64,000 nt of DNA from Cloacibacterium sp. (GTDB lineage: Bacteria > Bacteroidota > Bacteroidia > Flavobacteriales > Weeksellaceae): positions 290-64,289 of the forward strand of contig JBKBLE010000011.1 of the NCBI GenBank assembly GCA_046296655.1, written 5' to 3'. This document shows, one piece after another, positions 9,683 through 35,943 of the stretch (positions are counted from its first letter, which is position 1; each line of letters opens with the position of its first letter). A model generated the notes under the pieces. That model was given only the letters and a program-made list of their open reading frames with translations, ran no database searches and was not told the origin of the DNA. The position numbers and the translations under genes were made by a program.

Positions 9683-10237
9683 ATGCAAGCCGAAAAAATC
9701 ATTTTGGGAATAGACCCGGGAACTTCTGTAATGGGTTTCGGGATAATTTCTGTTCATAAAGGAAAAATGAAACTCATTGCCATTGATGAATTGGTAATGA
9801 AAAAAGAACCCAATCATGAAACGAAACTCAAAAGTATTTTTGACAAAACTTTAGCCTTGATTGATGAATTTCACCCAGACGAAGTTGCGCTAGAAGCTCC
9901 TTTTTTCGGGAAAAATGTGCAATCTATGCTCAAACTAGGAAGAGCGCAAGGTGTGGCAATGGCTGCAAGTCTCCATCGTGATATTCCCATCACCGAATAT
10001 TCTCCCAAAAAAGTGAAAATGGCGATTACGGGAAACGGAAACGCCAGCAAAGAACAAGTAGCAGGAATGCTGCAAAATCTTCTAGCAATGAAAGAATTTC
10101 CTACCAAATATCTAGATGCTTCTGATGGTTTGGCAGTAGCGGTTTGTCACAGTTTCAATTTGGGAAAACCTGAAAATGATAAAAATTACACGGGTTGGGC
10201 AAGTTTTTTGAAACAAAATCCTGATAAAATTAAGTAA
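9683..10237 (+). CDS. ruvC: Holliday junction resolvase RuvC
   Basis: ILGIDPG, VALEAPF, GNGNASKEQV and DASDGLAVA motifs. Confidence 0.97.
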   Translation: MQAEKIILGIDPGTSVMGFGIISVHKGKMKLIAIDELVMKKEPNHETKLKSIFDKTLALIDEFHPDEVALEAPFFGKNVQSMLKLGRAQGVAMAASLHRDIPITEYSPKKVKMAITGNGNASKEQVAGMLQNLLAMKEFPTKYLDASDGLAVAVCHSFNLGKPENDKNYTGWASFLKQNPDKIK

Positions 10238-10693: not shown

Positions 10694-11785
10694 ATGGAAA
10701 ATAAAACGCAAACTCCAGATAAAAATATTCCTACCAAAAACGGTATGTATCACCAGATGAACGGATTTCAGAAATTTCTGATGATGTGTTCTGGTTCTAA
10801 TCTTCATATTTTACAAAAATCGCCCAGCGAATGGAATAAATATGCAGGAATTGGTGGAATTGTACTTTTCACTGCTGTTTTTGCCACACTTTCAGCGAGT
10901 TATGCCATGTTTACAGTTTTCGAAGATGTTTGGATTTCGGCTGGATTTGGGATTTTATGGGGACTCATGATTTTTAATCTCGATAGATATATTGTCTCTT
11001 CCATTAAAAAAACGGGTAGTTTTTGGAATCAATTTTTCATGGCAGTTCCGCGTTTGATTTTGGCAACTTTTCTTGGAATTGTGATTTCAAAACCTTTGGA
11101 ATTGAAAATTTTTGAAAAAGAAGTCAATAAGCAGTTGAACACTATCATCCAAAGAAATAAAACGGAATTGCAGAAAACCATGAATGGTAGAATTTTGCAA
11201 CAATCTGGTCCTTTTGCAGAAGAAAAACAGAAAATTCAGAAACAAATTGCCACATATCAAGCTTCTTATGATTCTGCTGTGGTGGAATTAGAAAAAGAAA
11301 TTCTAGGAACAAAAACGGGATTAACTTCAGGAAAAGTAGGCTTCGGAACCAATGCTAAAAGAAAATCTGAATTGAAAGAACAACGCAGAAAAGATTTAGA
11401 AAATTATCAAAAACAAATGGAGCCGAGATTGAAATATTTGGATTCTCAAATTTCTGGAGTGTATCAAAATCTACAAACCGAACAGAGAAATTCTGAACAA
11501 GCAGAAAATAAATTTGATGGTTTTGCAGCGAGATTACAAGCTTTAGACGAACTTGGGAAAACCAATGAAATTATGGCTCTTGCGTCATTTTTCATTATGA
11601 TGATGTTTATTACACTAGAAATTTCGCCTGTTTTGGTGAAGCTAATTTCTTCAGTTGGGCCTTATGATTATCTTCTCGATAAAACCGAAAACGACTACCG
11701 ACTTTATTCTAAAGAAAAGATTGAAAAAGGAAATGCCGCTACAGATTTTAGAATAGAGAATTTTAAAAATAATCTGGGAAAATAA
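10694..11785 (+). CDS. DUF4407-like membrane/coiled-coil protein
   Basis: N-terminal TM helices with the FNLDRYIVSS motif, a long coiled coil and a C-terminal TM helix. Confidence 0.7.
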   Translation: MENKTQTPDKNIPTKNGMYHQMNGFQKFLMMCSGSNLHILQKSPSEWNKYAGIGGIVLFTAVFATLSASYAMFTVFEDVWISAGFGILWGLMIFNLDRYIVSSIKKTGSFWNQFFMAVPRLILATFLGIVISKPLELKIFEKEVNKQLNTIIQRNKTELQKTMNGRILQQSGPFAEEKQKIQKQIATYQASYDSAVVELEKEILGTKTGLTSGKVGFGTNAKRKSELKEQRRKDLENYQKQMEPRLKYLDSQISGVYQNLQTEQRNSEQAENKFDGFAARLQALDELGKTNEIMALASFFIMMMFITLEISPVLVKLISSVGPYDYLLDKTENDYRLYSKEKIEKGNAATDFRIENFKNNLGK

Positions 11786-11868
11786 AATTTCGAAAACCTG
11801 CGATAATTCAGCCACATAAAATTTCTGGAAGTTTTTTCAAGTGATAATTTTGCATCGTCAAATTATAT

Positions 11869-13104
11869 ATGAAAAGTGCTATGCAGAATTCGGGAAAAAG
11901 ATGGTTTATTGCCGTAATGGCGACCTTAGTACATCTGTGTTTAGGAACAGTTTACGCGTGGAGTTTTTTCCAGAAAACCGTCTCCGAAACTTTTGGCTGG
12001 AGCAATTCAGAAACAGCTTGGGCATTTAGTTTAGCCATTTTTATGTTGGGGGTAACTGCAAGTTGGGGTGGACAAAATTTACAGAAATTTGGGCCTAGAA
12101 AATTAGCGTTATTAGGAGCTTTTCTCTACGCTTTCGGTTATATTATTTCTTATTTCGCTTTACAAAACAAAAGTTTGTGGCTGCTGTATTTCGGGTATGG
12201 AATTGTGGGCGGAATTGGTTTAGGTTTGGCTTATGTAACGCCAGTTGCTACGGTTTCTAAATGGTTTCCAGACAAACAAGGTTTGGTTACTGGAATGGTG
12301 GTAATGGGATTTGGATTGGGCGCTTTACTCATGTCAAAACTTTTGGCTCCGATATTTTTAGAATATTTTGAAAAAGATTTAGCCAAAACTTTCCTTGCAA
12401 TTGGGATTACTCTTTTGGTTCTTCTTCCGTTTTTTGCCAATTTTTTGAACTTGCCAACAGAAGAAAAAGCTACAGAAATTTCAGCCGAAAAATTAAGTGC
12501 TGCCAAAGAGATTCTCTCTCCCAATTTTATTTTCATTTGGTTGATTTTCATGTTTAATGTAGTTGCAGGAATGATTTTTATATCGTTTCAATCACCTTTA
12601 TTACAAGACTTATTGAAAGCCGAAAACGTAAATATAGACACCGCAACGCTAGAAAAAAGTGGAGCTACATTAATTGCAATTAGTGCATTATTCAATGGTT
12701 TAGGAAGATTTTTCTGGGGAAGTATTTCAGATAAATTAGGAAGAGTAACCACTTTCAGATTATTACTTTTGATAGAAATGGGCGTTTTTGCTTCATTGAT
12801 TTTTATTAAATCACCCATTTTATTTTCTGTAGGAGTTTGTTTGATTTTACTTAATTATGGAGGAGGTTTCGGCGTTTTACCATCTTTAATCAAAGATTTT
12901 TTTGGAACAAAACTGATGCCGATAGTTTACGGAGCAGCACTTACAGCTTGGGGAGTTGGAGGAATTTTAGGTCCACAAATCACCGCTTACATGAAAGACC
13001 ATTTCGCCGAAAACGCAGGGTTATATGCTTATAAAGTAGCTTTGGTTTTAATAGCTTTGGGAATTGGGTTATCGTTTTTTGTGAAAAATAAAAAAGCTCA
13101 ATAA
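11869..13104 (+). CDS. MFS transporter, OFA (oxalate/formate antiporter-like) family
   Basis: About 12 TM helices. LGTVYAWS, KWFPDKQGL and GRFFWGSISDKLGR motifs. Confidence 0.9.
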   Translation: MKSAMQNSGKRWFIAVMATLVHLCLGTVYAWSFFQKTVSETFGWSNSETAWAFSLAIFMLGVTASWGGQNLQKFGPRKLALLGAFLYAFGYIISYFALQNKSLWLLYFGYGIVGGIGLGLAYVTPVATVSKWFPDKQGLVTGMVVMGFGLGALLMSKLLAPIFLEYFEKDLAKTFLAIGITLLVLLPFFANFLNLPTEEKATEISAEKLSAAKEILSPNFIFIWLIFMFNVVAGMIFISFQSPLLQDLLKAENVNIDTATLEKSGATLIAISALFNGLGRFFWGSISDKLGRVTTFRLLLLIEMGVFASLIFIKSPILFSVGVCLILLNYGGGFGVLPSLIKDFFGTKLMPIVYGAALTAWGVGGILGPQITAYMKDHFAENAGLYAYKVALVLIALGIGLSFFVKNKKAQ

Positions 13105-13116
13105 AAATTGAGCTTT
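13093..13116. terminator. Bidirectional hairpin between the convergent MFS and DoxX genes
   Basis: AAAGCTCAAT-AAAA-ATTGAGCTTT. Confidence 0.6.
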
Positions 13117-13122
13117 AGAATA

Positions 13123-13494
13123 TCAGTTCATCAATTGACTATATTTTTTTCTGTTTTCCCACAAAATCCAAAGTAAAATCACCGCGAAAACCAATCCTGG
13201 AACAATTCCGGCAGGATCATGGTAAAAATGATGCGCTAAAATTCCAATGATGATAGGCAATATTACTAATGCGCCAACTGCTCTAGTTTTTGGAAGTAAT
13301 ACTAAAAGTCCTCCTACAATTTCTGTAATCGCAACGAGAGGCATTAACCAACCAATTTTGCCAAAAGCATTGAACATTTCTAGTTGTTCTGGAGTTAGTT
13401 TTGGTGTTGGCATAAAGTTGAAAAATTTATTTGCCCCGAAAATAATCATTCCCACTCCGAAGAGAATGCATAAAATGTTGTAAACTGTTTTCAT
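13123..13494 (-). CDS. DoxX family membrane protein
   Basis: 4-TM pattern (GANKFFNFM...EIVGGLLVLLPKTR...HH). The likely start is the internal ATG at 13494. Confidence 0.8.
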   Translation of the reverse strand: MKTVYNILCILFGVGMIIFGANKFFNFMPTPKLTPEQLEMFNAFGKIGWLMPLVAITEIVGGLLVLLPKTRAVGALVILPIIIGILAHHFYHDPAGIVPGLVFAVILLWILWENRKKYSQLMN

Positions 13495-33503: not shown

Positions 33504-34508
33504 ATGTTTACAGAAAACCAACTTACAGAAATCAAAAGCCTTTTGCAACCGAATAAAAATGTAGTGATTATCACGCATTACAATCCAGATGGTGATGCAA
33601 TTGGGAGTAGTCTTGGTTTAAAACATTTTCTTAAAAATTTAGGAGTTGATGCTACGGTAATTGTTCCGAATGATTTCCCGAAATTTCTAAAATGGATGCC
33701 CGAAGCAAAAAAAATAGTCATCGCAGAATATAAACGTAAAATTGCTGCCGAAACGATTTATCATGCAGATGTAATTTTTTGTTTAGATTTTAATGCTCCT
33801 TCTAGAATTGGAATGTTGGGAGATTGGCTCACAAAATCTTGGGCGAAAAAAATCTTGATAGACCATCATCAGCAACCAGAACATTTCGATTTTGTGTATT
33901 CTAATACCAGTATTCCTGCAACTTGTCAAATGGTGTATCATTTCATTGAAGCATTGGGAAAAGAGGATTTGGTAAATCAAGACGTGGCAGAATGTCTTTA
34001 CACAGGAATTATGACGGATACTGGAGGTTTCCGTTTTCGTTCTACTTCTGCAGATACGCACCGAATTGTAGCGAATTTAATAGAAAAAGGTGCTGATCCG
34101 TCTATGATTACGTCTAATACTTTGGACACTAATACCGTTTCTAGATTACATCTTTTGTCGTTGATTTTAGGAAGAATAGAATTGGTAAAAGACGGAAAAG
34201 TGGCGATTCTTTATCTAAAACGTGACGAATTAAAAGAATTTGGTTTCGAAAAAGGCGATACAGAAGGTTTTGTAAACTACGGATTGAGTATTGCAGGAAC
34301 TAAAATGTCTGCTTTTTTCATGGAAGATTTATATGAAGATTTCATCAAAATTTCTTTCCGAAGCAAAGACGATGTAGATACCAATGCATTTGCGAGAGCA
34401 CATTTCCACGGAGGTGGACATATCAATGCATCTGGAGGTAAATATTTTAAAAATATCCACGAAACGATTGAAGATTTTAAAGAAAAAATAGAAAATGAAG
34501 ATTTTTAA
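33504..34508 (+). CDS. DHH/DHHA1 phosphoesterase (NrnA-like nanoRNase/pAp phosphatase)
   Basis: THYNPDGDAIGS, IDHH, GIMTDTGGF and GGGHINASG. Confidence 0.92.
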   Translation: MFTENQLTEIKSLLQPNKNVVIITHYNPDGDAIGSSLGLKHFLKNLGVDATVIVPNDFPKFLKWMPEAKKIVIAEYKRKIAAETIYHADVIFCLDFNAPSRIGMLGDWLTKSWAKKILIDHHQQPEHFDFVYSNTSIPATCQMVYHFIEALGKEDLVNQDVAECLYTGIMTDTGGFRFRSTSADTHRIVANLIEKGADPSMITSNTLDTNTVSRLHLLSLILGRIELVKDGKVAILYLKRDELKEFGFEKGDTEGFVNYGLSIAGTKMSAFFMEDLYEDFIKISFRSKDDVDTNAFARAHFHGGGHINASGGKYFKNIHETIEDFKEKIENEDF

Positions 34509-34785
34509 ACAATTTTTCGAAGATTTAAAAGACTACATTTCTGAATTTCTAAATGGTAGCCGTGAAGAATGGCTGTATAGAATCTCTGGTTTGATTGGTG
34601 TTTTGTCCATTTTACCATTTATATTTTTTATATGGAAACCTTATGAACCAGATTTTGTTAAAAGTTTGTCAAGATTTTATCAAAAATTTATAAGATATGC
34701 TTCGGCTCTAGCTTTTTATTTTTTAGTATTTCATTTATCACAGTTTCTTTTGAAATCATTTTTTAATAAGAAAATTAAGAAATAA
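34495..34785 (+). CDS. Small hypothetical membrane protein (2 TM helices)
   Basis: 96-aa ORF overlapping the DHH stop, with two hydrophobic segments. Confidence 0.6.
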   Translation: MKIFKQFFEDLKDYISEFLNGSREEWLYRISGLIGVLSILPFIFFIWKPYEPDFVKSLSRFYQKFIRYASALAFYFLVFHLSQFLLKSFFNKKIKK

Positions 34786-34790
34786 AAATC

Positions 34791-34895
34791 TTAACAAATC
34801 CTAGGCAATTGCTCTCCAATTAAAGGATTTACCACGCGTTTTCCGCCAAAAGCACTTTTCATAATGAATTTTCCGGCATGTTCTTCAGTGATTTT
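34791..34895 (-). pseudogene. hypE: 3'-terminal remnant (34 codons) of hydrogenase maturation protein HypE
   Basis: Minus strand translates KITEEHAGKFIMKSAFGGKRVVNPLIGEQLPRIC*. GEQLPRIC is the hallmark HypE C-terminus. An in-frame TAG lies immediately upstream. Confidence 0.85.
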
Positions 34896-34987
34896 CTAAG
34901 TTACAAGCCAGTTTGGTAATCATTTCTTCTATACTTTGTATCGTTTACGGTGGAAAAGTGGTGGTTGAAAATTTAGGTTTTCTTTAG
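34892..34987 (+). pseudogene. 3'-terminal remnant of a membrane protein, possibly a UreH/NiCoT-like nickel transporter
   Basis: Plus strand translates FSKLQASLVIISSILCIVYGGKVVVENLGFL*, one TM helix with no start. The family assignment is from memory and context. Confidence 0.45.
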
Positions 34988-34990
34988 AAT

Positions 34991-35773
34991 TTAGAGCAAA
35001 AAATGTTTCGGTAAATTATGCAACAATTCCGTATTGATAATTTCTGCACAAATCGTTGGTTTTTCCCAATGTCCGTTGTGACCGCAATCTAAAACATAGG
35101 TTTTGATGTTCGTCTTTTCAGGGATAATTTTGAGAAGATTTTCGGTTTTTACCGCATTGTCATATTTCCCAGCAATGATGAGGATTTTTGCATCTAAATT
35201 TTCTAAAATTTCAGTTCGGTCTGGTCTTTCTGCCATTCCTAATTGAGCTGCTTTTACGCCTTTTTTATTGGTAGATTTTGCTATATTTTTCGCCAATTCT
35301 ATTTTGCCTTCTAAAATATCTTTTTCATTATTGCTAAAAAGATTAGGGATAGAAGTTTTGACGAAAGTTTCAAAATTTTCATCAATTACGGCAATACTTC
35401 TTCTTCGGATTGCTTTTTTTTCTTCATCATCTGCAACTGTAGTCGAGAAAAATAAAGTCATGCTTTCTAAAATTTCAGGAAAATTTTCAGCAAAAGCCAG
35501 AGAAACATAACCTCCCAAAGAATGTCCTAGCAAATTGATTTTCTCTAATTTTAGAGCATCAATAACTTCTTTTACTTTTTCTGCCATCAATTCTACGGTG
35601 TGTATTTCTTGATAAACTTTAGATTTTCCATGTCCGGGTAAATCTATTTTAATCAATGTGAAATCTTTAGAAAGATGAGCTTCCATTTCATTCCAAATGG
35701 TAGTGTTTTCCATGAAACCATGAAGTAAAACCAATGGTTTTTTGCCGTTTCCTGAAATTTCGTGATGTAGCAT
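34991..35773 (-). CDS. Alpha/beta hydrolase
   Basis: LLHGF, IDLPGHG, nucleophile GHSLGG and C-terminal GHNGH. Confidence 0.92.
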   Translation of the reverse strand: MLHHEISGNGKKPLVLLHGFMENTTIWNEMEAHLSKDFTLIKIDLPGHGKSKVYQEIHTVELMAEKVKEVIDALKLEKINLLGHSLGGYVSLAFAENFPEILESMTLFFSTTVADDEEKKAIRRRSIAVIDENFETFVKTSIPNLFSNNEKDILEGKIELAKNIAKSTNKKGVKAAQLGMAERPDRTEILENLDAKILIIAGKYDNAVKTENLLKIIPEKTNIKTYVLDCGHNGHWEKPTICAEIINTELLHNLPKHFLL

Positions 35774-35787
35774 AATTTTTAATTTTT

Positions 35788-35822
35788 TAGATGAGAGATT
35801 TGAGATACGAGATTAAAGATTT
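35788..35822. repeat. 7-nt-period tandem tract (TAGATGA GAGATTT GAGATAC GAGATTA AAGATTT)
   Basis: Five degenerate heptamers directly adjacent to the hexamer array. Confidence 0.55.
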
Positions 35823-35829
35823 CAAATTT

Positions 35830-35943
35830 TTCAACCTTTACCTTTGCCTTTACCTTTACAATTACCTTTGTCTTTACCTTTGTCTTTACCTTTGCCTTTA
35901 CCTTTGTCTTTACCTTTGTCTTTACCTTTACCTTTACCTCAAC
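35830..35943. repeat. Hexamer tandem array, 19 units (CTTTAC/CTTTGT/CTTTGC) capped by TTCAAC and CTCAAC
   Basis: Counted unit by unit: 114 bp. Confidence 0.95.

Follow-up and report, generated by a model that had tools for sequence, protein, structure and literature searches.

The spacer between an NrnA-like gene and a hydrolase gene in Cloacibacterium sp. as the almost certain scar of a deleted [NiFe]-hydrogenase island

The 200-base spacer that separates the small gene p96 from an alpha/beta hydrolase gene in Cloacibacterium sp. is almost certainly an inert deletion scar, which marks the place where a [NiFe]-hydrogenase island of ~17 kb formerly lay between the NrnA-like and the alpha/beta hydrolase genes. 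Two homologies, syntenic intact islands in relatives, a junction common to diverged populations and the faster divergence of the scar, all of them observed directly, form the basis of this reading, while the recombination outlined below is the probable mechanism of the deletion. In the window, i.e., the whole 64-kb stretch of DNA that was analysed, the spacer reaches from the stop codon of the 96-codon ORF (34783-34785) to that of the alpha/beta hydrolase gene (34991-34993) and holds two stop-to-stop frames, one on the minus strand (34791-34895) and one on the plus strand (34892-34987; Table 1). A preliminary description of this DNA had recognised both fragments and had proposed that a multi-kb hydrogenase/maturation island had been deleted, leaving only the ends of its outermost genes. 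Both fragments are indeed present in the sequence where they had been placed, and the proposal of a deleted island is confirmed by relatives that carry the intact island between the same flanking genes.

Table 1. Features at and around the scar, in coordinates of the window
Feature	Position	Strand	Remarks
NrnA-like DHH/DHHA1 phosphoesterase, 334 aa, left conserved flank	33504..34508	+	NCBIfam NF053633 NrnA; Pfam DHH, DHHA1
p96, small hydrophobic ORF, 96 aa	34495..34785	+	overlaps the NrnA stop by 14 nt
hypE remnant	34791..34892	-	codons 300-332 and stop (TAA 34791-34793), ending in GEQLPRIC
Deletion junction	34893..34894		TT, orphan bases between hypE-derived and NicO-derived DNA
NicO-family nickel/cobalt transporter remnant	34895..34987	+	last ~30 codons and stop (TAG 34985-34987)
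Alpha/beta-fold hydrolase, 260 aa, right conserved flank	34991..35773	-	Pfam Abhydrolase_1, _6

HypE is a dehydratase of the PurM superfamily that makes thiocyanate on its own C-terminal cysteine for the CN ligands of the NiFe centre. The minus-strand frame translates to KITEEHAGKFIMKSAFGGKRVVNPLIGEQLPRIC, a peptide that aligns with the extreme C-terminus of TIGR02124, the equivalog model of HypE, covering positions 300-332 of the 332 in the profile (E = 2.9e-6); its score of 26.5 bits lies below the curated cut-off of 251.6 bits and is that of a fragment, not of a full-length match, and the intact HypE of a relative reaches 426 bits over positions 2-332. Over 33 residues, the fragment is 94% identical to the intact, syntenic 332-aa HypE of two relatives, L001 and L002, and compared with the intact hypE of L083, L084, and L085, it shows 89-91% nucleotide and 94% amino acid identity. 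The end of the peptide, with the PRIC motif of the family and the terminal cysteine, is the same as in four intact orthologues. The preliminary assignment of this frame to the C-terminal codons of HypE can thus be specified as the last 33 codons and the stop. With only 33 of 332 residues left, no start codon, and nothing of the N-terminal and central AIRS/AIRS_C body, this is a gene remnant rather than a member protein and does not represent an expressible gene. Its frame is shut by a stop codon directly upstream (34896-34898), and the homology stops at 34892.

NicO/HoxN-type nickel-cobalt transporters (PF03824) are often encoded in hydrogenase clusters and carry an H-x4-D-H metal-binding signature in an early transmembrane helix. 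The plus-strand frame (34892-34987) translates to FSKLQASLVIISSILCIVYGGKVVVENLGFL. When searched alone, this 31-aa fragment matched no family model, including that of NicO (PF03824); the hits to symport_access (E 0.011) and tify (E 0.037) were rejected as noise. Its identity as NicO therefore comes solely from syntenic relatives, in which the island ends with a NicO gene: by tblastn, residues 173-201 of that 201-residue protein match the fragment with 96.6% identity, and at the nucleotide level the remnant is 90.6% identical to positions 11692-11787 of L089. In L089 and L090, NicO has the C-terminus SKKLQASLVIISSILCIVYGGKVVVENLGLL, and the full-length protein of L090 scores 32.6 bits against PF03824 (cut-off 27.7). 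Thus, the membrane fragment, for which the C-terminus of a real protein, possibly a nickel transporter, had been guessed, corresponds to the last hydrophobic segment at the C-terminus of its orthologue in the relatives, a protein of 201-202 aa, and has one Lys codon fewer. All other hydrophobic segments are absent from the window, as is the H-x4-D-H signature, which is present in L089 and L090 (HAFEADH, within LEHAFEADHLL) and was deleted here together with everything except residues ~172-201.

The junction itself was defined by a three-way comparison in which the window was set against intact loci, with L083, L084, and L001 representing hypE and L089 and L090 representing NicO. Homology to hypE extends up to 34892 (…GGTGAT) and homology to NicO begins at 34895 (TCT AAG TTA…), with the two T residues between them having no assignable origin; no repeat or microhomology of at least 3 nt was found at the breakpoints in this comparison. 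As identity to the nearest intact references is only ~83-91%, the exact breakpoint may deviate from this position by 1-4 nt. The earlier estimate of the junction (approx. 34892-34896) therefore stands, whereas the bases that the two fragments seemed to share are not truly shared, since the 4-nt overlap of the stop-to-stop frames exists only because these frames happen to remain open across the junction. A single illegitimate recombination, acting without a repeat or usable microhomology, would have fused hypE codon 300 to approximately codon 171 of NicO, the two genes lying on opposite strands; such an event would have eliminated 13-14 genes entirely and left the two outermost ones truncated. 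Deletion scars left by reductive genome evolution are a general and well-known phenomenon, and there is no categorical difference between these and the present case, in which the truncated 3' ends of the two outermost genes abut, the junction lacks repeats, and the remnant drifts neutrally. The scar is a product of ordinary gene loss and reveals no new mechanism or biology, yet it is an unusually clean example, as both of its ends are readable and the intact state is still alive in sister species.

The intact state was found by using the NrnA-like gene as a synteny anchor in a scan of one genome per prokaryote species, which yielded 80 loci. The nearest of these belong to a Cloacibacterium sp. 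MAG (L002) and to Flavobacteriales UBA1937 (L001), whose NrnA proteins are 86-87% identical to that of the window, and these are also the only two of the 80 loci with a match to the HypE fragment, which lies on the opposite strand, directly downstream of NrnA and within an intact hypE. The L002 contig was annotated and then walked via exact-protein look-ups, with each island gene assigned by NCBIfam or Pfam. In this relative, the NrnA gene (plus strand) is followed by hypE, hypC, hypB, and hypA on the minus strand; then, on the plus strand, by genes for the small subunit, the large subunit, a b-type cytochrome, a HyaD-type protease, HypF, an FKBP-type isomerase, NikR, and a TonB-dependent receptor; and, at the right end, by a CLC channel gene (minus), hypD and the gene of a NicO-family transporter (both plus), and the alpha/beta hydrolase gene (minus). 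The gene order is the same in a second intact lineage, represented by the ENA scaffold L083/L090. An intact hyp/[NiFe]-hydrogenase cluster is thus located exactly between the DHH gene and the alpha/beta hydrolase gene, in the orientation predicted by the fragments, in L001, L002/L084/L089, and L083/L090. Computed from record coordinates, the deleted span corresponds to 16,595 bp on the L084/L089 contig and to 17,372 bp on the L083/L090 scaffold. Short repeat elements of the GCCACGAA… type are scattered among these genomes (L001 10180-10274, L002 ~11010-11060, L092 ~10050-10095); one of them lies inside the L001 hypF reading frame, which it leaves unbroken, and high-depth copies occur in the organism of the window.

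The island encodes a membrane-bound group-1 H2-uptake [NiFe]-hydrogenase, HypABCDEF, an FKBP-type (SlyD-like) isomerase, a nickel module (NikR, TonB-dependent receptor, and NicO), and a CLC channel. The large subunit of the relatives is closest to PDB entries 3myr, 4c3o, and 3uqy, which are solved group-1 membrane-bound uptake hydrogenases. Operons of this group, such as E. coli hya/Hyd-1, Salmonella Hyd-5, Allochromatium vinosum MBH, and Cupriavidus MBH with its hyp genes, resemble the island of the relatives in combining the small and large subunits, cytochrome b, the protease, and hypABCDEF. However, the Bacteroidota island adds NikR, the TonB-dependent receptor, NicO, the FKBP isomerase, and the CLC channel, and this whole unit is absent from the window. 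A search of the literature on Cloacibacterium and hydrogenase returned nothing specific.

For the left flank, NF053633 (NrnA) is the best NCBIfam match (E 3.5e-32, below the model cut-off), and the best NCBIfam matches of the hydrolase are alpha/beta-fold hydrolase models (MenH and PcaD), all below their cut-offs. The hydrolase stop codon lies 3 nt from the NicO stop codon in the window, exactly as in the intact locus of L090 (NicO 11769-12377, plus strand; hydrolase 12381-13163, minus strand). The p96 protein apparently has two membrane-spanning segments and matched no family in the family scans; L083, a relative with an intact locus, has a homologue with 88% identity at this position, and L001 and L002 lack the gene. 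Hence, p96 is not part of the island, and its position is variable among strains. Several further observations concern the edges of the island, both of which are indel hot spots. The p96 alleles diverge strongly in otherwise 98%-identical genomes (window 34495-34785; L092 9150-9440; L083 3240-3530): the allele of L092, which is itself a scar bearer, has 37% amino acid identity, with the alleles being alike only over the first ~38 nt, and a minor variant matching this allele is present in the source run (depth ~130 vs. 673). A second, smaller deletion (~647 bp) lies beside the scar (window 34786-34790 vs. L083 3530-4176 and L092 9441-10093); between p96 and hypE, the intact L083 and also the scar-bearing L092 have an ORF of 177 aa, whose N-terminus is like a signal peptide and which weakly resembles DUF3575; this ORF is missing from the window and L093. 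At the other edge, Cloacibacterium sp. 5N004 (L089 11785-12354) carries, between nicO and the hydrolase gene, an additional gene of 189 aa that weakly matches GNAT, as well as ~280 bp, neither of which occurs in L090 or in the window. Positions 35835-35939 of the window, upstream of the hydrolase gene, hold 8.8 copies of a 12-bp tandem repeat (CCTTTACCTTTG), and the Logan contig of the source run stops inside this array.

If the island had been excised here and persisted elsewhere in the genome or on a plasmid, H2 oxidation would have been retained. Such a translocation is highly improbable. Within the 64-kb window, no further homologue of any island protein was found. Contigs of X1, the best-matching run and a hot-spring metagenome, were compared with L002 and L001, which served as two diverged references for the island, at a nucleotide identity of at least 80%, over the part of the references that ends at the start of the FKBP gene, with hypD, nikR, nicO, and other genes of the right-hand part lying beyond it. 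On both references, the NrnA flank and the scar appear at a depth of ~700 and the island is represented only by contigs of other organisms (depth 2-13); no relocated copy at the depth of the organism was seen at this identity up to the FKBP start, the only matches at a depth of ~700 being the scar and short stretches that are AT-rich or belong to repeat elements. The high-depth spikes on L002 (at ~13.4, 15.0, and 18.2 kb) and on L001 (9.6-10.9 kb) were considered as relocated genes and rejected, as they consist of short AT-rich matches; a further cause of spikes is a GCCACGAAGTGGCG-type repeat element inserted in the L001 hypF reading frame rather than hydrogenase genes. Moreover, a relocated copy would need new intact 3' ends for both hypE and nicO. 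These results lend indirect support to a loss of H2 metabolism: the organism can probably no longer oxidise H2, although it may have a distant second hydrogenase of less than 80% nucleotide identity.

It might also be argued that the tails were retained for a function, either as a 3' UTR or terminator for the convergent p96 and hydrolase genes or as small peptides, given that both short frames are still open and that the 197 bp have no indels in any scar bearer. This reading is extremely improbable. No promoter or terminator, including a terminator-like hairpin, was predicted in the scar, and in the reading frame of its parent gene, each fragment lacks a start codon. Instead, among scar bearers the scar shows 7-9% divergence, compared with 2-4% in the flanking genes, i.e., it diverges 2.5-4 times faster. 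Differences among four intact hypE tails and between two intact nicO tails are all synonymous, whereas the remnants in the window have accumulated three replacements (V to F and E to K in HypE, and L to F in NicO) at positions that are invariant in the functional copies, which for HypE number four. The scar is unconstrained DNA that has been drifting since the deletion, and selection on it is relaxed.

An assembly artefact, in which the MAG fused two contig ends and the real genome keeps the island at this locus, has a probability close to nil. It is true that the window is of metagenome origin (hot-spring runs X1 and X2) and that, in wastewater runs with junction unitigs, loose ends continue into the intact hypE and intact nicO of other populations. 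Nonetheless, an independent Logan contig from X1 is 100% identical to positions 34490-35891 of the window, with 0 differences at a depth of 673, and island DNA in this run reaches a depth of only 2-13. The second hot-spring run, X2, contains two junction-spanning haplotypes, one of which has 13 differences in 202 nt. In total, with assembled unitigs and contigs serving as the read evidence, the junction is spanned in the Logan data of six runs (X1, X2, X3, X4, X5, and X7), five of them in addition to X1 and including other studies, with junction-spanning unitigs in wastewater, sediment, and other metagenomes of different studies. Three metagenome contigs that were assembled by others and found by an exact-pattern scan (L092, L093, and L094) carry the identical junction without indels, and their flanking genes are 96-98% identical to those of the window. 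Hence, a misassembly, against which the locus was checked, is contradicted by independent assemblies across the junction. Finally, chance can be dismissed altogether as the reason why short ORFs of an AT-rich spacer look like HypE and a transmembrane tail: although each fragment has only ~30 codons and the transmembrane one alone has no family-model match, they share 94% and 96.6% identity with orthologous C-termini, occupy the syntenic position on the right strands and at the right distances to the flanking stop codons, and in the case of HypE align with the last 33 positions of the model (E = 2.9e-6).

With the spacer accepted as the scar of a deleted island, the order of events can be reconstructed. 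In 57 other Weeksellaceae species (Chryseobacterium, Kaistella, Epilithonimonas, and others), the gap between the NrnA and hydrolase genes measures 14-3390 bp and contains no hydrogenase genes; because the flanks adjoin without a hydrogenase in these species, the island must have been gained in a Cloacibacterium-like ancestor and lost later. L001 and L002 are 82% identical (~18% difference) in flanks and island alike, and this even divergence indicates vertical inheritance of the island. The window represents the derived state, as gene fragments cannot precede genes. The loss had been thought to be recent and confined to one strain, but this does not hold, because the identical junction occurs in diverged hot-spring, wastewater, and sediment strains, which differ by 2-4% in the flanks and by 7-9% in the scars. 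Taken together, the common junction, the scar divergence, and the replacements point to a single inherited deletion followed by unconstrained drift of the scar. This single deletion predates the diversification of a species-level lineage, which has inherited it, and, given that diverged strains share an identical junction, it is a fixed character of that lineage.

Annotation of the spacer should name two pseudogene remnants. Wastewater metagenomes that contain the scar also contain continuations into intact hypE and nicO, and the presence or absence of the island may, in a tentative and rather doubtful reading, define niches between co-occurring Cloacibacterium-like species, with the fixed deletion reflecting an adaptive move away from aerobic H2 scavenging, or from the cost of its nickel import, in the lineage that dominates the hot-spring sample. 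If this were true, the scar would be a one-read marker that distinguishes H2-oxidising from non-oxidising populations. In ecological terms, Cloacibacterium-like populations with and without the island can be told apart in wastewater and hot-spring metagenomes by the junction sequence. The scar provides a base-resolved, single-origin record of the loss, by a flavobacterial lineage, of a complete H2-uptake hydrogenase along with the genes for its maturation and nickel supply, on an island that is seen to have been first gained between two anciently adjacent genes.
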